Assembly: GCA_903844845.1 (NCBI GenBank)
Contig: CAIMVG010000004.1
Location: 30,840 to 94,839 of the forward strand
Source: an uncultured Dehalococcoidia bacterium
Lineage (GTDB): Bacteria; Chloroflexota; Dehalococcoidia; Dehalococcoidales; UBA1222
Direction of reading: 5' to 3'
Length of the DNA stretch: 64,000 bases
The notes beneath the pieces were generated by a model. The model did not search any database and was not told the DNA's origin. It saw nothing but the letters and a program-made list of their open reading frames with translations. Shown here piece after piece: positions 2,957 through 64,000 of the stretch (the first letter of the stretch is position 1; each line of letters begins with the position of its first letter). The position numbers and the translations under genes are program-made.

Positions 2957-3033
2957 AGAGTGTGATATTTCAGATTTTGAATCAGGTTGGATTCACCGGT
3001 CACCAAAGAGTCAAAGTTGTCCATTGATCAAAT

Positions 3034-3055
3034 ATCGGGATATCTGCCATTCCAT
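3034..3055 (+). repeat. 22-nt direct repeat, left copy (atcgggatatctgccattccat)
   Basis: Matches 3567-3588 at 21/22 positions in the same orientation. The two copies bracket ORF 3114..3551. Confidence 0.75.
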
Positions 3056-3113
3056 GCTTGGGTATGTACGGTTTGAATGTATCATTGACAATCAATGATA
3101 AAATTACGCAACG

Positions 3114-3551
3114 ATGATGAAGAAATCAATGGTTGCTAAGATCTCAATTGTTGCTGGATTTACCTCCATACTCGCGGTAGTTTTAGCAATGGTGCTCTCA
3201 TCAGTTAGAATTGATTTGCTAGTCGATAAACGTATCACAACAAACACTAGTGACTTTATTTACCAAATTCAGTTGTTTCTGGAAATCACAACCCCAATTT
3301 TAGCAATTTTAGCCATTGTTTTGGGTTTAAAATCTAACGCACATAAACCAATTACAAATGAAACTTCAGAACTTCCGAAAATCGTACGAAGGATATCGCC
3401 AGGATCGATCGGGGTTACATTTGCCCTGTTCGCGCTAATTATTTTGTGTTTTGATTTTTTCCCCTGGGGAGGGTTCATCGGGTTATTTCTTCTTGTGCCA
3501 ATCCTCATTGTGCGTGGAGCGTTATTTCTCAAAAGGACGTTTTGGCGGTAG
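3114..3551 (+). CDS. Hypothetical integral membrane protein (about 4 TM), AT-rich
   Basis: 145-aa ORF with four hydrophobic segments. It is visibly more AT-rich than its flanks. I recognise no family. Confidence 0.6.
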   Translation: MMKKSMVAKISIVAGFTSILAVVLAMVLSSVRIDLLVDKRITTNTSDFIYQIQLFLEITTPILAILAIVLGLKSNAHKPITNETSELPKIVRRISPGSIGVTFALFALIILCFDFFPWGGFIGLFLLVPILIVRGALFLKRTFWR

Positions 3552-55328: not shown

Positions 55329-56624
55329 ATGGCCGCTGATTACCGCCCAATGTGGACCGAACTAGGAATGGATCTCAAAGCCCATGATGCCCTGCTGGAC
55401 GCACTTGGCAAAGCATATCAAGATGTCTTCCTCTCTCAGAAGGTACGCCCCGAAGGAATGAGTTACCTCGACTTCGTCATGAGCGAGGTTCACGGACTGC
55501 GCATAAAAGAGTTAAACGATGCCCGTGCCACCGGACGTAAAGTTGTTGGGACCTTCTGCGTCTTCGTTCCCGAAGAAATCGTTTTGGCAGCCGACGCCAT
55601 CTGCGTCGGACTGTGCGCCGGCGCCGAATTCGGCTTCGAAGAAGCAGAGAAACTCCTTCCGCGTAATACCTGCGGCCTTATCAAGAGCGCCTTTGGTTTC
55701 AAGCTCACGAAGGTATGCCCTTATACTCAAAGCTCCGACATGGTCGTCGGCGAAACAACTTGCGATGGAAAGAAAAAGGCCTATGAGATTTTTAAGGATA
55801 TTCAACCAAACGTATATATAATGGAAATCCCTCAAATGAAGAACACAGCCGATCGCCAGCTTTTCGCCTCTGAATACTGGCGCTTCAAAGAGGCTGTGGA
55901 AAAGCTCACCGGGGTCACCATCACGGCCGAACGACTCAAGAAAGCCATCATTACGGTCAACAACAAGCGCAAAGCATTACATCGCCTGGCCCTTTTACGC
56001 GCAACTGATCCCGCCCCCATCTCCGGCCTCGACTCACTGCTCATCAACCAGGTTGCTTTCTACGACGACCCAGTGCGCTTCACCGGAGCCATCAACAAGA
56101 TCTGCGACGAACTGGAAGGTCGCATTAAACAGAACTCGGGCGTGGCGCCCAAGCACACACCACGTGTGCTCATCTCAGGATGCCCCATGTCGGTGCCAAA
56201 CTGGAAACTGCCGCTGGTCATCGAAACCTCGGGCGCAGTCATTGTAGGCGAGGAGTCCTGTGTCGGCGAACGAGGGCAGCGCAACCTTGTCGATGAGAAG
56301 CCCCATACCATCGAGGGCGAGATGGAAGCACTCATCGATCGCTATTTCAAAATAGACTGCGCGGTCTTCACACCCAATCAGGACAGAACCGACCACATCA
56401 TATCAATGGCCAAGGAATACAAAGCCGACGGCGTCATCCATTATGCACTACAATTCTGCTCGCCCTACACTGTCGAGTCTTACCTCGTAGAGAAGGAATT
56501 GGCCAAACACGGCATCCCGATGCTCAAGATTGAGACAGACTACAGCATGGAAGACGTGGGCCAACTCAAAACCCGCATCGAAGCTTTCATAGAAACATTC
56601 AGGCAACCAGCATGGTCTCACTAG
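55329..56624 (+). CDS. 2-hydroxyacyl-CoA dehydratase / benzoyl-CoA reductase BcrC-BadD-HgdB family protein (single-subunit, double-cubane-cluster-protein-like)
   Basis: 431 aa with conserved Cys spread along the protein (FCVF, CVGLC, NTCG, TTCDG, SGCP, SCVG, QFCSP). AAAGGAG SD. It is followed by an overlapping activase gene. Confidence 0.8.
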   Translation: MAADYRPMWTELGMDLKAHDALLDALGKAYQDVFLSQKVRPEGMSYLDFVMSEVHGLRIKELNDARATGRKVVGTFCVFVPEEIVLAADAICVGLCAGAEFGFEEAEKLLPRNTCGLIKSAFGFKLTKVCPYTQSSDMVVGETTCDGKKKAYEIFKDIQPNVYIMEIPQMKNTADRQLFASEYWRFKEAVEKLTGVTITAERLKKAIITVNNKRKALHRLALLRATDPAPISGLDSLLINQVAFYDDPVRFTGAINKICDELEGRIKQNSGVAPKHTPRVLISGCPMSVPNWKLPLVIETSGAVIVGEESCVGERGQRNLVDEKPHTIEGEMEALIDRYFKIDCAVFTPNQDRTDHIISMAKEYKADGVIHYALQFCSPYTVESYLVEKELAKHGIPMLKIETDYSMEDVGQLKTRIEAFIETFRQPAWSH

Positions 56625-57367
56625 GTATAGATATAGGTTCTCGTACAATCAAGGTGGCCGTCCTCGAGGACGGCCACCTTAAGTTCAGTCATGTTTCCGA
56701 CAGTTCTTACGATCCCATGGCCATAGCCCACAAACTGCTGGAAGGGCTGGAATACGATAGCATAACGGCCACCGGTTATGGCCGTCACAACTTCAAGGCA
56801 CACTTTGACTGTCCAGTCATCAGCGAAATAAAGGCCTTCGGGCAGGGGGCACTCTTCTTCTTCCCCGAAACCGCCGCTATCCTCGACATCGGAGGACAAG
56901 ACACCAAGACCATCTTACTCGACGCCAGCGGTCGAGTTTCTAAGTTCGAAATGAACGACCGCTGCGCCGCGGGTACAGGGCGTTTCATGGAAATCATGGC
57001 TAACGCGCTGCATTACACAATGACCGAGTTCGGCAAAGTGGCTCGTACGGCAAAATCGGCTGAGAAGATCAGCAGCATGTGTACAGTATTCGCCGAGAGC
57101 GAGGTAGTGTCCCTAATAAACAGTGGAGCGGACCGCGAGGGGGTGGCGCTGGGAATTCATGAAGCCATCGCTTCCAGAGCTTTGACCATGCTCGGCAAGC
57201 TTGGCGATTTCAAGAACCTGGTATTCGCCGGAGGTGTTGCCTACAACCCCTGCATGCGACAGATACTCGCCGAGCGCCTGGGCATTCCGATACTCGTCCC
57301 AGTGGACCCGCAGATAGTGGGAGCAGTCGGCGCAGCACTCGAGGGGGTCGGTCGTCTAGCGAGTTGA
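56612..57367 (+). CDS. Acyl-CoA dehydratase activase / BcrAD-BadFG-HgdC-type ATPase
   Basis: Contains GIDIGSRTIKVAVL and the NDRCAAGTGRFMEIMA cluster-bridging Cys motif. 251 aa; overlaps the upstream gene by 13 nt. Confidence 0.88.
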   Translation: MVSLGIDIGSRTIKVAVLEDGHLKFSHVSDSSYDPMAIAHKLLEGLEYDSITATGYGRHNFKAHFDCPVISEIKAFGQGALFFFPETAAILDIGGQDTKTILLDASGRVSKFEMNDRCAAGTGRFMEIMANALHYTMTEFGKVARTAKSAEKISSMCTVFAESEVVSLINSGADREGVALGIHEAIASRALTMLGKLGDFKNLVFAGGVAYNPCMRQILAERLGIPILVPVDPQIVGAVGAALEGVGRLAS

Positions 57368-57495
57368 CGGGCCATTCATAAACCTCCGCTGTCGGTAATA
57401 GAAAACAAGAATAGGAAGAGAACGCCCTATATGTTTCTTTGTTTTTGAACAAGCACCATAGTTGCCATTGTGAAGACAAATCGCTGTGGCACCTA

Positions 57496-57524
57496 TTGAC
57501 ACCCCCAAGACAGGATGGTATAGT
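57496..57524 (+). promoter_or_regulatory. Candidate sigma70 promoter TTGACA-17-TATAGT of the shikimate-operon leader
   Basis: ttgaca lies at 57496-57501 and tatagt at 57519-57524. The predicted start falls within a few nt of ATG 57534. Confidence 0.55.
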
Positions 57525-57533
57525 CATAAAACG

Positions 57534-57599
57534 ATGTTGTCTAATATTTCGAGCAGCTATTACGCATATTATTACTTTACCAACGCCTCATGGCGCTAG
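57534..57599 (+). CDS. Putative aromatic-amino-acid leader peptide MLSNISSSYYAYYYFTNASWR
   Basis: My own translation gives 21 codons then TAG, including 5 Tyr, 1 Phe and 1 Trp (YYAYYYF at 57558-57578). It lies between a promoter and an intrinsic terminator upstream of the aro operon. No SD is present. Confidence 0.5.
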   Translation: MLSNISSSYYAYYYFTNASWR

Positions 57600-57643
57600 G
57601 GAGAATGACGGTTTTTAAATCGTAGAACACAACAAGCATTATT

Positions 57644-57669
57644 AATCCTCCCGGTCGGGAGGATTTTTT
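57644..57669 (+). terminator. Intrinsic terminator / attenuator upstream of the DAHP synthase gene
   Basis: AATCCTCCC-GGTC-GGGAGGATT is a 9-bp stem followed by TTTTTTAGTTT. It lies 42 nt upstream of ATG 57712. Confidence 0.75.
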
Positions 57670-57711
57670 AGTTTAAGGGGAATTATTAAAATATAAAGGG
57701 AGGCAACGACA

Positions 57712-58791
57712 ATGATCATCATGAAAGCCGACGCAACCAAACAGGAAATCGACAACGTGATCGCGGAGGTCAATAAACTCGGCCTGAGGGCCGATGTTTC
57801 TCGCGGCGAATCACTGACCATCATAGGGCTGGTAGGCGATGAACGGAAGATCCCTTTTTCTTACCTTTCAGTCCTTCCAGGGGTGCGCGATGCACACATG
57901 ATCGAAACTCCCTATAAACTCATCAGCCGCGAATACAGCAAAGCCTTTCAGGAACCTTCTGAAAACAGGGTCATCCACGTGGGCAATGTCGAAATAGGAG
58001 GCGAGACCCCAACGTACATCGCTGGTCCCTGCGCAATCGAAAGCCGCACACAACTCTTCCGCATCGCAGAAGAAGTAAAAAAAGCAGGGGCACATATCCT
58101 GCGCGGCGGTATATTCAAACCACGGAGTTCAGCGCATTCTTTCCAGGGACTGGGGGCTAAAGGGGACGAGGAAGCGCGGGAAGCCCTCACGTGGTTGCGC
58201 GACGCCGGGCGGGCATTTGAAATGCCTGTGCTCACGGAAGTTCGCGGCGAGAATCAAGTAGATCTTATCGCTGAATACGTCGATATCCTCCAGGTGGGGG
58301 CGCGAAACATGTACGACCAGGACCTACTCGGAGTTCTCGCCAGAAAAAGCAAACCGGTATTCTACAAACGCCACTTCGGGGCCAGTGTCGAAGAGTTCCT
58401 CTCATTTTCCGAATACATCGCCGTCGAGGGAAACAAAGACATCATCCTGTGCGAACGAGGCGAGCTGCCTATCGGCAAAGGCAAAAATTTCACACGCTAC
58501 ACGCTCGACCTGGCCGCTATCCCGGTCATCCAGAAGGAAACTTACCTTCCCGTCATGGCCGACCCCAGCCACGCCACCGGTCGCCGAGACCTGATCTATC
58601 CGATGAGCTGTGCAGCCATGGCAGCGGGTGCAAGCGGACTGGCAATTGAGGTACACTATAATCCAGCAGAATCGTGGGTGGACGCGGCCCAGGCGATAAC
58701 AGCCGATGAGCTGAAAAAAATCATCGACGATTGCAACCGCATCCACGGCCTCACAGCAGGACAAAACAAGAAGGTCAAGGCAGGGAAATAA
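57712..58791 (+). CDS. aroF: 3-deoxy-7-phosphoheptulonate (DAHP) synthase, type I-beta with N-terminal ferredoxin-like/ACT-like regulatory domain
   Basis: Contains GPCAIESRTQLFRIAEEVKKAGAHILRGGIFKPRSS and roughly 70 extra N-terminal residues, as in Thermotoga-type DAHPS. GGGAGG SD. Confidence 0.9.
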   Translation: MIIMKADATKQEIDNVIAEVNKLGLRADVSRGESLTIIGLVGDERKIPFSYLSVLPGVRDAHMIETPYKLISREYSKAFQEPSENRVIHVGNVEIGGETPTYIAGPCAIESRTQLFRIAEEVKKAGAHILRGGIFKPRSSAHSFQGLGAKGDEEAREALTWLRDAGRAFEMPVLTEVRGENQVDLIAEYVDILQVGARNMYDQDLLGVLARKSKPVFYKRHFGASVEEFLSFSEYIAVEGNKDIILCERGELPIGKGKNFTRYTLDLAAIPVIQKETYLPVMADPSHATGRRDLIYPMSCAAMAAGASGLAIEVHYNPAESWVDAAQAITADELKKIIDDCNRIHGLTAGQNKKVKAGK

Positions 58792-58795
58792 GCCG

Positions 58796-59875
58796 ATGCA
58801 CGTCCTAAAGGTTTCACCCGGTTCATCAAATTATAATGTTTATATAGGACCGGGTGTCCTTGGCGAAATACCGGTCCGGTTGAAACGATCCATTGCGGGT
58901 AAACGCCTGTTCGTGGTCACAAATCCCGCTATTTTTGAATTACACGGATTCAACTTGAAAGAGGAACTGCAAAGAGAGGGATTCGAGGTCGGGATTCTTA
59001 TGGTACCCGAAGGCGAGGAATTTAAATCCCTCGAAACAGCGGGCAGACTTTACACTGAGCTGGCCTCCCAAAATGCGGAACGCAGTACACCAATCCTTGC
59101 GCTTGGCGGCGGCGTCATAGGGGACCTGGCAGGTTTTGTTGCCGCAACTTACATGCGCGGAATGCCGCTCATACAGATTCCCACAACCTTGCTGGCCCAG
59201 GTGGATAGCTCCATCGGTGGGAAGACCGCAGTCAACCATGACCAGTTAAAAAACCAGATCGGCGCTTTTCACCAGCCATCGGCGGTTTTCAGCGACACTT
59301 TTGTGCTCAAGACGCTCCCCCCGGGGCAGATATCCAATGGTCTGGCAGAGGTAATCAAAAGCGCCATAATAAGCGATCCACAGCTTTTCTCGTTATTGGA
59401 ACACAGGATGGGTAATATGCTCGCGCTGGAACAGAAAACGATGGATGCCGTCATTATACGTGCAGCCGGTGTCAAAGCACGGATAGTCAACAATGACGAA
59501 CGTGACAAGAGGCGTCGCAATATCCTCAACCTAGGGCACACCACAGGGCATGCCCTCGAAACCGTCACGCGCTACAAGATAAACCATGGCACGGCCGTGG
59601 CGATTGGAATGATTATAGCGGCCCGCATCTCTCTTAAGATGGGGTTATTCTCACAGAGAGACCTCGGGCGCATTACCAGTGTAATTACGGCTGCCGGTCT
59701 TCCGACAAGCATACCCGACGCCAGTGTCGCTGACATTCTGGCAGCCGTAAGACATGATAAAAAAATATCAGCTGGACGTTTAAAATTCATCCTTCCCGTC
59801 GGAATAGGAAAGGTAATTATTTCGGACAGGGTCAGTCTCGAAATGGTCGCCCAAGCGCTGGAAGAACAGGCGTGA
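58796..59875 (+). CDS. aroB: 3-dehydroquinate synthase
   Basis: Contains GGGVIGDLAGFVAATYMRGMPLIQIPTTLLAQVDSSIGGKTAVN. Confidence 0.95.
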   Translation: MHVLKVSPGSSNYNVYIGPGVLGEIPVRLKRSIAGKRLFVVTNPAIFELHGFNLKEELQREGFEVGILMVPEGEEFKSLETAGRLYTELASQNAERSTPILALGGGVIGDLAGFVAATYMRGMPLIQIPTTLLAQVDSSIGGKTAVNHDQLKNQIGAFHQPSAVFSDTFVLKTLPPGQISNGLAEVIKSAIISDPQLFSLLEHRMGNMLALEQKTMDAVIIRAAGVKARIVNNDERDKRRRNILNLGHTTGHALETVTRYKINHGTAVAIGMIIAARISLKMGLFSQRDLGRITSVITAAGLPTSIPDASVADILAAVRHDKKISAGRLKFILPVGIGKVIISDRVSLEMVAQALEEQA

Positions 59876-60528
59876 ACCCTCAGCGTATCTGTGCTGTAAT
59901 TACGACCCATGAAGCTGCCGCCACCCCTGAGCTGTGGGCCGGTGCGGACCTGGTTGAAATCAGGATAGACTTGATAGGCCATGGGTGGGATAAATCGATT
60001 CGCTCCCTGAAAAAACCGTGGATAGCCACCAACCGCTTGAAGGCTGAGGGCGGACTTTGGGAGGGAACCGAAGAAGCCAGGCGAACAGAACTCCTAAAAG
60101 CGCTTTCAATGGGAGCAGACATCATTGATATTGAACTAGCCGCCCCGGACCTCGAAGAAATAATACCCCAGATCAAGAAGAAAGCCCGTTGCATGATATC
60201 CCATCATGATACGAAACGAACACCCCCACGGTCAGAACTCCGCCGTATTATTAACGATGAGCTGGCGGCCGGGGCTGATATCTGCAAACTCGTGACCACC
60301 GCACGCGCATTCGACGATAATGCCGTTATGCTTGGAATAATAAACGAATTCAAACCCGCGGACGTTGTGGCTTTCTGCATGGGGCCCCTGGGACAATTAA
60401 GCCGTATCCTCTCCCCGCTCAGCGGAGGTATTTTCACATACGCCGCACTCACCGAACACGATACATCGGCGCCCGGGCAATTGACCATTTCACAGGTGAA
60501 AGGCGTATTCGGAACATTGAGCCCATGA
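59872..60528 (+). CDS. aroD: 3-dehydroquinate dehydratase, type I
   Basis: 218 aa of the type I family (…ISHHD…CMGPLGQLSRIL). Overlaps aroB by 4 nt. Confidence 0.88.
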   Translation: MNPQRICAVITTHEAAATPELWAGADLVEIRIDLIGHGWDKSIRSLKKPWIATNRLKAEGGLWEGTEEARRTELLKALSMGADIIDIELAAPDLEEIIPQIKKKARCMISHHDTKRTPPRSELRRIINDELAAGADICKLVTTARAFDDNAVMLGIINEFKPADVVAFCMGPLGQLSRILSPLSGGIFTYAALTEHDTSAPGQLTISQVKGVFGTLSP

Positions 60529-61943
60529 TAAACGCCGGTACAAAACTCTGTGGGGTGATTGGAGACCCCGTCAAGCATACCCTCTCGCCTGTCATGCATA
60601 ATAGGGCCATTGCAGAGCTTGGAATCGATTATGCTTACCTGGCATTTAATGTCAAAACCACCAACCTCGGGGCTTCAATCGAGGGTATGCGGGCACTGGG
60701 GATAAGGGGGCTGAACGTCACTATCCCCCACAAGGTCGCGGTCGTGCAGTTTCTCGATGAACTTGACCCGCTGGCGCGTGATATAGGCGCCGTTAATACG
60801 ATAGTAAACGACGAAGGGAAGTTGAAAGGGTATAACACAGACGCCGCAGGGTTCCTCCAATCGCTCGATGCAGCAGGGTTCGAACCAATGGGTAAAAAAG
60901 TGGTGCTGCTCGGCGCGGGCGGCGCTGCCAGGGCGATGGGATTCGCCCTGGCACAAGCTGGCTCCCTGATCACTATACTGAACCGCAAACCCACACTTCC
61001 ACAGGCTGTCATTTTATCGAACAACCTCGAACGCACATGCGGTTCGAAGGTGACGGTAATGGAACTCAACGCGACGAACCTGAAAACCGTCATGGCCGAA
61101 GCCGAGTTGCTGGTCAATGCTACAAGTGCCGGCATGGAGCCTGCCGTGGATGAAACGGCCGTTCCGACTGACCTATTAAAACCCGGGATCACGGTCTTCG
61201 ACGTAGTTTACACCCCATATGAAACCAGGTTGTTGAAAGAGGCGGCCGCACGGGGATGCCAGGTAATAAGCGGTCTCGAAATGCTGGTGAGCCAGGCTGC
61301 ACTCGCGCTGGAACTCTGGACAGGGATGCAAGCCCCTCTTGGCGTGATGCGAGAGGCCGCGATTTCAGCCGTGTATCCAGGGACCGGTGGAACAAGTGTA
61401 AAAACACCGGAAATCGAAAAAACGGAAAAAACAAACGTGGCCCTAGTCGGCTTCATGGGTGCAGGCAAAACAGCAGTCGGTAAAGCACTTGCCAGAAAAA
61501 TGGGAAAACCATTCGCTGACCTGGATGCGCTTGTAGAAAAAAAAGCCGGTAAAAGTGTTGCACGCATCTTCAAAGAGGATGGGGAACCCGTCTTCCGGAA
61601 GCTGGAAAAAGCCTCAACAACTGATATTGCCTGTAAATCAGGCCGGGTAATCGCCTGCGGCGGGGGTGTCCCGCTCGACCCCGCCAATATAACCGCTTTG
61701 AAACAGAGTTCGGTCGTAGTTTATTTGAAGACCTCGAACACGGAGATTATCAAACGGGTCTCCTCCGGCCCCGTGCGACCCCTTCTGGCTGACGGCAAAG
61801 ACATTACAACGTTAATCGCCGCACGCACACCGTTTTACGAGCAATCGGCGGACATCACAATCGACACTACGAGAATCACTATAGAATGCGTTGCCGAGAA
61901 GATTATCGAAAGATTGGGTAAATATGAAAGTTTCCGTTTCTAA
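60525..61943 (+). CDS. aroE: Bifunctional shikimate dehydrogenase / shikimate kinase (AroE-AroK fusion)
   Basis: The N-terminal part is AroE (VIGDPVKHTLSPVMHN...GAGGAARA). The C-terminal 170 aa or so carry the P-loop GFMGAGKTAVGKALA and AroK motifs. Confidence 0.9.
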   Translation: MINAGTKLCGVIGDPVKHTLSPVMHNRAIAELGIDYAYLAFNVKTTNLGASIEGMRALGIRGLNVTIPHKVAVVQFLDELDPLARDIGAVNTIVNDEGKLKGYNTDAAGFLQSLDAAGFEPMGKKVVLLGAGGAARAMGFALAQAGSLITILNRKPTLPQAVILSNNLERTCGSKVTVMELNATNLKTVMAEAELLVNATSAGMEPAVDETAVPTDLLKPGITVFDVVYTPYETRLLKEAAARGCQVISGLEMLVSQAALALELWTGMQAPLGVMREAAISAVYPGTGGTSVKTPEIEKTEKTNVALVGFMGAGKTAVGKALARKMGKPFADLDALVEKKAGKSVARIFKEDGEPVFRKLEKASTTDIACKSGRVIACGGGVPLDPANITALKQSSVVVYLKTSNTEIIKRVSSGPVRPLLADGKDITTLIAARTPFYEQSADITIDTTRITIECVAEKIIERLGKYESFRF

Positions 61944-63183
61944 AAGCCAGGTACACGGCATCATCGATGCCCCATCATCAAAGAGCTACACCATTCGATC
62001 TGTGATGTGCGCGGCCCTTGCCAAAGGGGAGAGCTATATCCGACGCCCACTTACGTCAGACGATACACTGGCGGCAACCGATGTGTTGCGTAAAATAGGG
62101 GCGGAAATCCACCAGAGCGCTTTCGGATGGCGGGTAACCGGGGGTGCCATTAAAACTCCCGAATCAGAGCTTTTCTGCCGAGAATCCGCTGCCACCTTCC
62201 GCTTCATGGTCGCCCTTTCAGCAGGTGTACCGGGCACCGTACGCCTGGTGCCGGGACAGACCCTTGCCAGACGCCCCATACTTCCACTGATAGATGCCAT
62301 GGCTCAACTCGGAGTCAAATGCCGGCTAGACGGCTCAGTGGTCGTTGTCGAGGGAGGAAGTTTCCCGGGCGGGACAGCCGTGCTGGAAGGAGACGTTAGC
62401 TCGCAATTCGTGTCTGCCATCATGATGACCGGGCCTCTGGCACAGCAGGGCATCCATATCGAATTGAAATCACAACCAACTTCGAAACCTTATCTCGATA
62501 TGACAATCGAATGCCTGAGAAAATTCGGCATACGCGTAACCGCCTCTCCTGGGATGACCGATTTCAAAGTGGATAAACAGGATTACAGGCCGACCGAATA
62601 CACGGTAGAGGGCGATTGGTCGCAGGCATCCTACCTGCTCGCGCTGGGAGCCATTTCGGGAGACGTGGTGGTCAGCAACCTCAACGCAGAAAGCCTGCAA
62701 GGCGACCGTGTCGTACTCAACCTGATACAAAAAATGGGAGCTCGCCTTTCGGTTCGGCGAAGTTCGGTCATGGTGCAGAGGTCTTTGCTGCATGGTATCA
62801 ACGCCGACCTGAGTGACTGTATCGACCTTCTGCCCACGCTTGGAGTGCTGGCTTCCTTAGCCGACGGCGAAAGCCATTTCAGCGGCATCAAAGGTGCCCG
62901 GCTCAAAGAATCCAACAGAGTAGAGGCGCTTTCACAGGAATTACAAAAGATGGGCATCCGGGTACGCGAGGACGAAAATTCAATCACAATTTTCGGTGGG
63001 CATCCGCATGGCGCCAATATCGACAGTCATTCAGACCACCGCATGGCGATGGCTTTCGGAGTACTCGGAACGGCGATAGGCGACACCTCGATAACCGGTG
63101 CCGAAAGCGTCGAAAAGACTTATCCCGATTTCTGGAAAGCGCTGGGTTCTCTCGGCGCAAAGGTAGCCTTCCATGTCAAATAG
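61924..63183 (+). CDS. aroA: 3-phosphoshikimate 1-carboxyvinyltransferase (EPSP synthase)
   Basis: Start at ATG 61924 (MKVSVSKSQVHGIIDAPSSKSYTIR). Contains the C-terminal HSDHRMAMAF. Confidence 0.93.
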   Translation: MKVSVSKSQVHGIIDAPSSKSYTIRSVMCAALAKGESYIRRPLTSDDTLAATDVLRKIGAEIHQSAFGWRVTGGAIKTPESELFCRESAATFRFMVALSAGVPGTVRLVPGQTLARRPILPLIDAMAQLGVKCRLDGSVVVVEGGSFPGGTAVLEGDVSSQFVSAIMMTGPLAQQGIHIELKSQPTSKPYLDMTIECLRKFGIRVTASPGMTDFKVDKQDYRPTEYTVEGDWSQASYLLALGAISGDVVVSNLNAESLQGDRVVLNLIQKMGARLSVRRSSVMVQRSLLHGINADLSDCIDLLPTLGVLASLADGESHFSGIKGARLKESNRVEALSQELQKMGIRVREDENSITIFGGHPHGANIDSHSDHRMAMAFGVLGTAIGDTSITGAESVEKTYPDFWKALGSLGAKVAFHVK

Positions 63184-64000
63184 CCTGGGCAAGGTTTTCA
63201 CCGTGACCAGTTTTGGCGAAAGCCACGGCGAGATGGTTGGGATTATCGTTGACGGCTGCCCCGCCGGACTTCCGCTTTGTGAAGCAGACCTTCAACCCGA
63301 CCTCGAACGGCGCAGACCAGGGAAAAGCTCCATTTCTTCGCCACGTAAAGAATTGGATAGGGGCATTATTTTATCAGGCGTTTTTAACGGTAAAACAACC
63401 GGGGCGCCTTTATGCATGATCGTCCGAAACGAGGACGCACACCCTGAAGCCTATGAGAAAACAAGCAGTGTTCCCCGCCCGGGACATGCCGATTACACCG
63501 CTTATGTGAAATATGGCGGGTACGCCGATTACCGCGGTGGCGGGCGGTTTTCCGGACGGGTCACAGCAGGATTGGTGATGGCTGGCGCGGTCGCTAAAAA
63601 GCTGCTAGCACTGTTGAATGTGGAAATACTCGGACATACGTCCGAGATAGGCGGCATCAAAGCGATCGCCCGAGATTACGACGAAGTACGTAAAAATGCG
63701 CCCGCCAACCCAGTTCACTGTTGCAACCCGCAGACCGCCGAAATCATGATCCGAGCCATCGAAACGGCCCTCAAGGAAGGTGACAGTCTGGGGGGCATCG
63801 TCGAAATCATAGCCCTCGGTGTCCCAGCCGGGCTTGGCGAGCCAGTATTCGACACGCTGGAGGGAGAGATGTCGAAAGCTTTCTTTTCCATACCGGGAGT
63901 GAAGGGCGTGGAATTCGGCGCAGGGTTTTCGGTGGCACACCTCAAAGGTTCAGAAAACAACGATCCGTTCATCCTGAAGGACGGGGGTATCGCGACCACA
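63173..64000 (+). CDS. aroC: Chorismate synthase, C-terminus beyond window
   Basis: Absent from the ORF track because there is no stop in the window. My own translation from ATG 63173 reads [33 protein letters not shown]...[15 protein letters not shown]... Confidence 0.9.
   Translation, partial: [276 protein letters not shown]

Follow-up and report, generated by a model that had tools for sequence, protein, structure and literature searches.

A candidate leader-peptide attenuator of the common aromatic amino acid pathway in an uncultured member of the Dehalococcoidia

How is the common pathway of aromatic amino acid synthesis controlled in the Dehalococcoidia? The question is raised by a locus in the window, that is, the whole 64,000-nucleotide (nt) stretch of DNA analyzed here, which comes from an uncultured Dehalococcoidia bacterium (contig CAIMVG010000004.1, positions 30,840 to 94,839 of the forward strand). 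Ahead of an operon whose first gene encodes 3-deoxy-D-arabino-heptulosonate 7-phosphate (DAHP) synthase lie a promoter, a 21-codon open reading frame (ORF) rich in tyrosine codons, and a hairpin followed by a T tract, which an earlier reading of the sequence alone, referred to below as the original prediction, had interpreted as an aromatic amino acid attenuator. That interpretation was supported: the element is very probably a transcription attenuator of the trp/pheA type, in which a ribosome on a leader-peptide ORF controls the common pathway to the aromatic amino acids, and both the conservation of the ORF in relatives and the relation of the hairpin to the upstream genes came out in its favor. 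Regulators of this kind are well known; the family to which the element belongs is new.

The promoter, the leader ORF, the hairpin, the Shine-Dalgarno (SD) sequence and the two pairing partners of the original prediction were all found where it had placed them. The features of the element are as follows.

57496..57501, + strand: -35 hexamer TTGACA of the leader promoter, which as a whole matches the consensus at 11 of 12 positions
57516..57524, + strand: extended -10 element TGgTATAGT (TG at 57516-57517, TATAGT at 57519-57524), separated from the -35 hexamer by a spacer of 17 nt
57534..57599, + strand: leader ORF MLSNISSSYYAYYYFTNASWR, 21 codons, then TAG at 57597-57599
57558..57578, + strand: regulatory codon run Tyr-Tyr-Ala-Tyr-Tyr-Tyr-Phe (YYAYYYF)
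57570..57607, + strand: hairpin 1:2, a candidate anti-antiterminator or pause hairpin, from the minimum free energy fold; outer stem UAUU.CUUU (57570-57578) with GGAGAAUG (57600-57607), inner stem CGCC (57584-57587) with GGCG (57592-57595)
57594..57604, + strand: segment 2, CGCUAGGGAGA, the 5' strand of the antiterminator as located by duplex search, containing the leader stop TAG; homologous to columns 94-104 of family alignment A1, which covary with the terminator 5' arm and loop
57599-57603 and 57648-57652: pairing partners GGGAG and CTCCC
57608..57623, + strand: linker hairpin ACGGUU-UUUA-AAUCGU between segment 2 and the terminator, common only to the closest relative (L001)
57644..57665, + strand: predicted intrinsic terminator stem-loop AATCCTCCC-GGTC-GGGAGGATT, 9 bp, 5 GC, -14.2 kcal/mol; segment 3 comprises the 5' arm (57644-57652) and loop (57653-57656), segment 4 the 3' arm (57657-57665)
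57666..57673, + strand: U tract of the predicted terminator (TTTTTTAG TT), the DNA after the hairpin reading TTTTTTAGTT
57576..57675, + strand: match of covariance model R1 (1:2 hairpin, linker and terminator), 46.5 bits, E = 1.9e-7
57698..57703, + strand: SD sequence GGGAGG of the DAHP synthase gene, 8 nt ahead of its ATG at 57712

The leader ORF stands out within the window itself. Seven of its 21 codons are aromatic (five Tyr, one Phe, one Trp), and among the 635 small ORFs of the 64 kb it is the sole one with at least five aromatic residues in any eight codons, its best eight-codon count being six and that of the runner-up four. A scan of the whole window for further leader-like ORFs or copies of the RNA scaffold yielded none, and R1 matches only at this locus. 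Scans over 2 kb returned two promoter sites (1.7 expected from shuffled sequence) and five terminator-like sites (2.0 expected). The promoter, the hairpin and the fold are not significant from one sequence, and their significance rests on comparative data.

For the comparison, 80 loci were assembled from the closest DAHP synthases (66-97% identical enzymes), with one genome per Genome Taxonomy Database species; all are Dehalococcoidia or Chloroflexota metagenome-assembled genomes (MAGs). The RNA scaffold was modeled from 85 family members as covariance model R1, and R1 matched ahead of the DAHP synthase gene at each of the 80 loci. Codon, promoter and duplex statistics refer to 77 loci or leaders. 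In the protein homology search only close MAG relatives (at least 76% identity) appeared among the matches listed, without cultured Dehalococcoides or Dehalogenimonas.

The small ORF and its aromatic codons were found to be conserved in these relatives, as the original prediction had anticipated for a genuine leader. In 78 of the 80 the short ORF is complete and contains a Tyr/Phe/Trp run in frame, and the other two (L016, L045) are cut by contig ends; these two and two ordinary aromatic leaders (L018, L048) were the four loci missed by the ORF heuristic. In nearly all cases the ORF precedes the DAHP synthase gene by 90-300 nt (leaders of this kind include MLVNIGFQGLYYMYYFTWRTRCAWGALV and MISQKFNAYYYFYYFFWRQSAGEGFV). 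Aromatic codons make up 29% of leader codons, as against 6% in neighboring proteins, and average 8.1 per leader in frame, the other two frames giving 2.1 and 3.2. The totals over all leaders are Tyr 349, Phe 188 and Trp 88, with free synonymous usage (TAT 212, TAC 137; TTT 139, TTC 49), and the per-codon logo of the run reads Y Y (Y/A) Y (F/Y) (Y/T) F, with Y, F and W exchanged at the same positions. Leader length varies from 19 to 35 residues, as does the position of the stop, and an N-terminus resembling ML(V/I)NI(A/T)S recurs in many relatives. The statistics point to translation of the leader and to selection on codons, by amino acid class, rather than on a nucleotide motif.

Four independent metagenome contigs contain the leader ORF, promoter and terminator stem of the window, the only differences being in codon 20 and in the terminator loop. 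The window, L081 and L082 on one side and contigs L083 and L084 on the other encode an identical DAHP synthase and are distinguished by codon 20 (TGG, Trp, versus CGG, Arg) and by the loop (GGTC versus GACC). These differences represent population-level variation inside the attenuator.

The promoter is conserved as well. A perfect TTGACA at 16-18 nt spacing was found in 71 of the 77 orthologous loci, although the enzymes are down to 66% identical, and the TG-extended -10 element is conserved in most relatives. The distance from the -10 element to the leader ATG is 9 nt in the window, which gives a predicted transcript start at about 57530-57532 and a predicted 5' untranslated region of 2-4 nt. 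Most relatives have a distance of 26-30 nt, and a distance of 6-10 nt occurs in about 8 of the 77, the window included. In the relatives with the longer distance a weak, purine-rich or GGU-type SD-like sequence precedes the leader ATG; SD-like 4-mers turned up at only 26 of the 77 loci. The original description of the transcript as near-leaderless and lacking an SD sequence fits the predicted start in the window and does not extend to the family, in which the near-leaderless start appears, from these predicted positions, as a minority, lineage-specific state.

A GC-rich hairpin followed by a U run is found at every locus, 110-165 nt past the leader ATG, with the consensus GAACCCUCCC-AAGC-GGAGGGUUC. 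The terminator helix is 85% paired across the family and 7 of its 9 pairs covary. Promoter, in-frame aromatic codons under codon-level selection, and terminator are thus all conserved by computational comparison.

Is the hairpin, then, simply the constitutive terminator of the 2-hydroxyacyl-CoA dehydratase and activase genes upstream, and the aromatic ORF a chance product of an AT-rich spacer? There is no other terminator-like site on the + strand between the activase stop at 57367 and the hairpin, so that read-through from upstream would end there too, and the single-sequence statistics for promoter, hairpin and fold are weak, as such a reading would have it. In all 80 genomes, however, the element stands with the DAHP synthase gene, whereas its upstream neighbors belong to 36 families over 68 loci, are divergently oriented in 41 of these 68 and are never an activase; the hairpin travels with the DAHP synthase gene and, because the upstream neighbors differ, is not merely the terminator of the previous operon. 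The conserved in-frame aromatic codons and the near-perfect promoter between the activase gene and the leader ORF speak against the same explanation, which is extremely unlikely. A role exclusively as terminator of the upstream operon was rejected on synteny.

The attenuator further requires a second structure that excludes the terminator. In the family, the 3' end of the leader ORF forms a short hairpin (GGCGCA..UGCGCU), and segment 2 (UUGGGAGG) comes after it; the median distance from the end of segment 2 to the last nucleotide of the stop codon is 6 nt. Taken together with its 5' flank, segment 2 reads CGCUUGGGAGG, and this matches the reverse complement of the terminator 5' arm and loop, CCUCCCAAGCG. 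The resulting antiterminator duplex has a mean energy of -20.4 kcal/mol, compared with -10.8 kcal/mol for shuffled upstream regions, and the native duplex is the better one in 77 of 77 loci. When terminators were swapped between loci the energy rose from -20.35 kcal/mol (own) to -16.93 kcal/mol (swapped), and none of 2000 permutations was as low as the native value. The helix of 11 bp is 87.1% paired by cells in alignment A1, compared with 39-62% when the partner is slid, and 8 of the 11 pairs show compensatory changes. Cells changed on both sides number 63, compared with 21.5 +/- 3.7 in shuffles (0 of 500 as high); one pair, which involves a base of the terminator loop, occurs as UA in 34 cases, GC in 15 and CG in 14. 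A1 was one of two alignments used for this purpose, and the other, A2, reproduces the covariation (87-88% paired over both). RNAalifold, run with no structure hint, returned exactly the long-range antiterminator helix as the consensus.

Three-way changes were seen in subgroups: GCUUGAGAGG changes with CCCUCUCAAGC (also CCCUCUCAAGCAGAGGG) and with AGAGGG, GCGCUGGGGAGGG with CCCUCCCCAG, and GCGCUCGGGGGA with CCUCCCCGAGCG (also CCUCCCCGAGCGG). These changes preserve antiterminator and terminator alike. The GGGAG:CUCCC antiterminator of the original prediction coincides in position with the covarying 11-bp helix of the family; in extent it is not representative, most relatives having a much longer pairing (CGCUUGGGAGG:CCUCCCAAGCG, mean about -20 kcal/mol). 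Computation establishes that the antiterminator covaries and excludes the terminator, and it likewise establishes where the stop codon falls and that the element is associated with genes of the aromatic pathway.

On this basis the following mechanism is proposed. A strong promoter of the sigma-70 type would give a transcript whose first approximately 140 nt comprise the 21-codon peptide ORF and then the intrinsic terminator. When charged Tyr-, Phe- and Trp-tRNAs are plentiful, the ribosome would reach the stop codon inside segment 2 and cover that segment, the terminator at 57644-57665 with its U tract would form, and transcription would halt short of the DAHP synthase gene. Under a shortage of aromatic aminoacyl-tRNAs the ribosome would instead stall in YYAYYYF, occupying the 5' strand of the 1:2 hairpin and leaving segment 2 free to capture the emerging terminator 5' arm and loop; with this antiterminator in place, RNA polymerase would read into aroF(G)-aroB-aroD-aroEK-aroA-aroC. 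Leader translation, ribosome stalling, the coupling of transcription and translation, and the size of the response are inferred.

The upstream 1:2 hairpin, absent from the original prediction, was seen in the minimum free energy fold. As in the trp leader, its 5' strand is formed by the last aromatic codons (UAC UUU ..C UGG CGC), and in the family the helix is 80.8% paired, with 8 of 12 pairs varying on one side only. In some relatives it is strong, e.g. 13 bp in L040.

Several observations weigh against an attenuator. The single-sequence fold is not unusual, with a z-score of only -0.9, and was uninformative. The window antiterminator is the weakest of the 77 (5+3 bp, -10.8 kcal/mol), and its GGGAG:CUCCC duplex is equaled by 9% of shuffles of the window's own upstream region. 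Support for the 1:2 helix comes mainly from one-sided (G-U) changes, and the helix is weak in the window, because of which untranslated window RNA is predicted by the nascent model described below to form the antiterminator rather than the terminator. At equilibrium the window terminator (-14.2 kcal/mol) beats the antiterminator (-10.8 kcal/mol) at every stall position. The window leader has no SD sequence, and its translation relies on the predicted start about 2-4 nt before the ATG. Finally, to our knowledge intrinsic termination and transcription-translation coupling are uncharacterized in Dehalococcoidia.

With ribosome masks, equilibrium folds of the 77 loci changed from terminator to antiterminator in just 44, and in the window they did so at no stall position. 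Because the terminator wins at equilibrium in the window, the switch can only be a kinetic one. A model of the nascent RNA, folded no further than the terminator loop, was adopted in place of the equilibrium folds. Under this model GGGAG:CUCCC, together with GCU:GGU, is predicted to form in the window at every Tyr/Phe stall position and not with the ribosome at the stop.

The same weaknesses could indicate that the window copy has decayed, with a premature TAG in segment 2, a short 5' untranslated region and a 5+3-bp antiterminator, and that it now acts as a leaky, mostly constitutive terminator that hardly responds to amino acids. The window antiterminator is not significant against shuffles, the R1 score is among the lowest of the family, and the leader, with its TAG inside segment 2, is the shortest. 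The closest relative, L001, whose enzyme is 97% identical, retains a longer ORF and a duplex of -18.5 kcal/mol. Against decay, the aromatic run, the promoter, the terminator and the GGGAG:CUCCC core are all intact, and the recurrence of leader ORF, promoter and terminator stem in four independent contigs was noted above. In the nascent model a stop inside segment 2 amounts to efficient masking by the terminating ribosome. The antiterminator of the Escherichia coli trp leader is likewise weaker than its terminator. Decay of the window copy is judged improbable.

The genes that the attenuator is proposed to control extend to the end of the window. They were assigned with Pfam.

57712..58791, + strand: DAHP synthase type I-beta with an N-terminal ferredoxin-like FXD domain (PF18152 at 6e-17, PF00793 at 2e-62)
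58796-59875, + strand: aroB
59872-60528, + strand: aroD
60525-61943, + strand: aroE-aroK fusion, a single 472-aa ORF with shikimate dehydrogenase and shikimate kinase
61891-63183, + strand: aroA
63173 to the window end (64000), + strand: aroC

Gene ends abut or overlap throughout this operon (57712..64000), of which the DAHP synthase gene is the first. Because the GGGAGG SD sequence of that gene sits outside the terminator hairpin, control is transcriptional and not by masking of the ribosome-binding site. The N-terminal regulatory (FXD) domain attributed to the DAHP synthase in the original prediction is present, as the two Pfam matches attest, and attenuator and FXD domain together would provide two-level control. 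Directly upstream of the operon lie an HGD-D dehydratase gene and its activase (55329-57367), with a promoter of their own and no leader. The opposite strand carries rpsL, rpsG, fusA, rplC, rplD, rplB and rpsC between 47328 and 54834, and the aromatic locus thus adjoins the str/S10 region.

Is the scaffold confined to this operon? A metagenome scan with the scaffold pattern GCTTGGGAGG-N30-60-CCCTCCCAAGCGGAGGG returned 31 loci, of which 22 precede an FXD-type DAHP synthase and the others different genes; the contig of one locus (L106) ends 36 nt past the terminator. The loci ahead of other genes include the following.

L086:8540-8657(-) and L105:2551-2667(+): pheS-pheT, with the Phe-only leaders MSLCEVSRHFKVNFIFKER and MSNTASQPFNVNFIFLKR
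L099:3293-3398: Liv-type periplasmic binding protein (PF13458), then genes that we take to be permeases; leader MLSKTSITFTYHYAYTFPERDNRLG
L109:30-149: class I/II aminotransferase (hisC-like), then a gene that is presumably hisB, named from its sequence only; leader cut by the contig end
L100, L110 and L112: family-III CoA-transferases, an MBL-fold protein and HGD-D dehydratase, with Phe-rich or Tyr-rich leaders (for the copies in L110 and L112, Phe-rich MINKTVSLFFANFIFTGAL or Tyr-rich MKTYSASQVYFYTYTYFTYAR)
L110: two attenuator copies, at 1551-1665 and 3025-3145, - strand
L112: two attenuator copies, at 517-636 and 3237-3347, - strand
L097: attenuator at 1746-1864, with HMGL-like aldolase (DRE-TIM, PF00682) downstream, to about 3870

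The pheST leaders, set beside those of the shikimate operons, show codon specificity exchanged in nature on a single scaffold. Judged by these sequences, the window element is a member of a scaffold family that appears to mark an aromatic regulon, with leader codons that track the regulated function.

In L097 a normal aromatic attenuator is followed by a DAHP synthase cut down to a 20-codon remnant of the FXD N-terminus (MIIITETDATPEQIIARRGG) and then by the HMGL-like gene; the gene after that is, we assume from its sequence only, aroB. The arrangement may represent a non-orthologous replacement of the first step of the shikimate pathway.

The clusters of L100, L110 and L112, with their CoA-transferases and HGD-D dehydratases, resemble phenyllactate dehydratase clusters. 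The leaders in front of them suggest a starvation-induced role of the CoA-transferase/dehydratase enzymes in aromatic amino acid metabolism. A broader proposal can be put forward tentatively, and may well prove wrong: a duplicating, modular attenuator family would define the aromatic regulon of the Dehalococcoidia, its codons setting specificity, and the Fld-like clusters and the adjacent HGD-D/activase genes would serve in salvage of Phe and Tyr or their synthesis from aryl acids, and not in fermentation, because attenuators switch genes on in starvation.

The pheST leaders also bear on the identity of the sensor. A trans-acting factor, either a TRAP-like protein or a tRNA in the style of a T-box, might recognize the UAY/UUY repeat or the scaffold, the ORF being incidental. 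Contiguous UAU/UAC triplets could act as a repeat binding site, and neither the window leader, with no SD sequence, nor most relatives (SD-like 4-mers in 26 of 77) advertise translation. Substitutions in the run nevertheless follow amino acid class, with Y, F and W interchanged and both TAT and TAC in use, the frame is open from the start codon to a stop located at segment 2, and ahead of pheST the same scaffold carries Phe codons only in place of the repeat. Nor was there a match to the T-box or any other Rfam family. The T-box covariance model gave no match at E <= 10 in 56500-58500 and none at the gathering level in 20 relatives, and these 20 relatives, compared with 4227 Rfam families, gave no gathering-level match at all. 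With permissive thresholds, Phe_leader (RF01859, 22.2 bits against a gathering threshold of 55) and Leu_leader (RF00512, 20.9 bits against 50) aligned to the region by the terminator only, and so did a sub-threshold match of ncr1575. A trans-acting sensor is very unlikely, and sensing of the TRAP or T-box kind was rejected on the codon-level patterns and the pheST leaders.

Alternatively, the ORF could encode a functional micropeptide rich in aromatic residues, to which the RNA structures are unrelated. Conservation of the short ORF, with an N-terminus that recurs in many relatives, would fit; against this, its length and stop position vary, the covarying RNA helices fall on the stretch that encodes the conserved C-terminal 'peptide' WR..CAWGALV, and the composition of the peptide shifts with the regulated gene. 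There is next to no likelihood of this.

With the leader-peptide attenuator, amino acid biosynthesis in the Dehalococcoidia gains a cis-regulatory RNA that has good support; this environmentally important class is mostly uncultured, and no such element was found for it in the searchable literature or in Rfam. Because the mechanism is textbook, the value of the family lies in cataloguing, in annotation and in the definition of an aromatic regulon rather than in a new concept. The R1 scaffold can be searched for and marks a wider regulon, so far pheST, a Liv-type transporter, an aminotransferase and CoA-transferase/dehydratase clusters, which allows functions to be assigned to genes in MAGs. The occurrence of Tyr/Phe/Trp and of Phe-only leaders on one scaffold offers a ready-made test of codon-specific sensing.

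No other leader-peptide attenuator in which tyrosine codons predominate is known to us. Many actinobacterial leader peptides are encoded on leaderless transcripts, as is predicted for the window. A literature search for attenuators or leader peptides in Dehalococcoidia or Chloroflexi, or for leaders with Tyr codons, yielded nothing relevant beyond aroR of Corynebacterium glutamicum. This leader (Phe-Tyr-Phe) lies upstream of aroF, which encodes DAHP synthase, functions as an attenuator and was reported to show a response to Phe but none to Tyr (PMC4046766, PMC11802643). Going by the published descriptions, aroR-aroF appears to be the closest functional precedent, the likeness being one of function: in both cases a leader peptide with mixed aromatic codons is associated with control of a DAHP synthase operon. 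The two differ in phylum, in the number of regulatory codons (three in aroR, seven in the window and about eight on average in the family) and in the dominance of Tyr in the Dehalococcoidia, as against the Phe response of aroR. The Dehalococcoidia scaffold is moreover shared by several operons, and no such sharing has been described for C. glutamicum.

With the enterobacterial attenuators of pheA (pheL), pheST, trp and his the element has in common a leader ORF with cognate codons, a candidate 1:2 hairpin, a 2:3 antiterminator and a 3:4 terminator, as well as a stop codon placed so that the terminating ribosome masks segment 2. As in E. coli, pheST is associated with Phe-only leaders, which in the Dehalococcoidia would exert control through the shared scaffold. 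The element is nevertheless no sequence or structure member of the Rfam families Phe_leader (RF01859) or Trp_leader (RF00513). Its codons are mixed (Tyr > Phe > Trp) and are placed on the common pathway, which in E. coli is under the TyrR and TrpR repressors, and one homologous scaffold is reused across the Dehalococcoidia regulon, unlike the enterobacterial leaders. In the T-box and TRAP systems of the Firmicutes, too, the 5' leader of aromatic biosynthesis genes forms either a terminator or an antiterminator, depending on how much charged tRNA or amino acid is available; there the sensor is an uncharged tRNA or a protein, whereas here it is proposed to be the translating ribosome, reading the codons of a conserved ORF.

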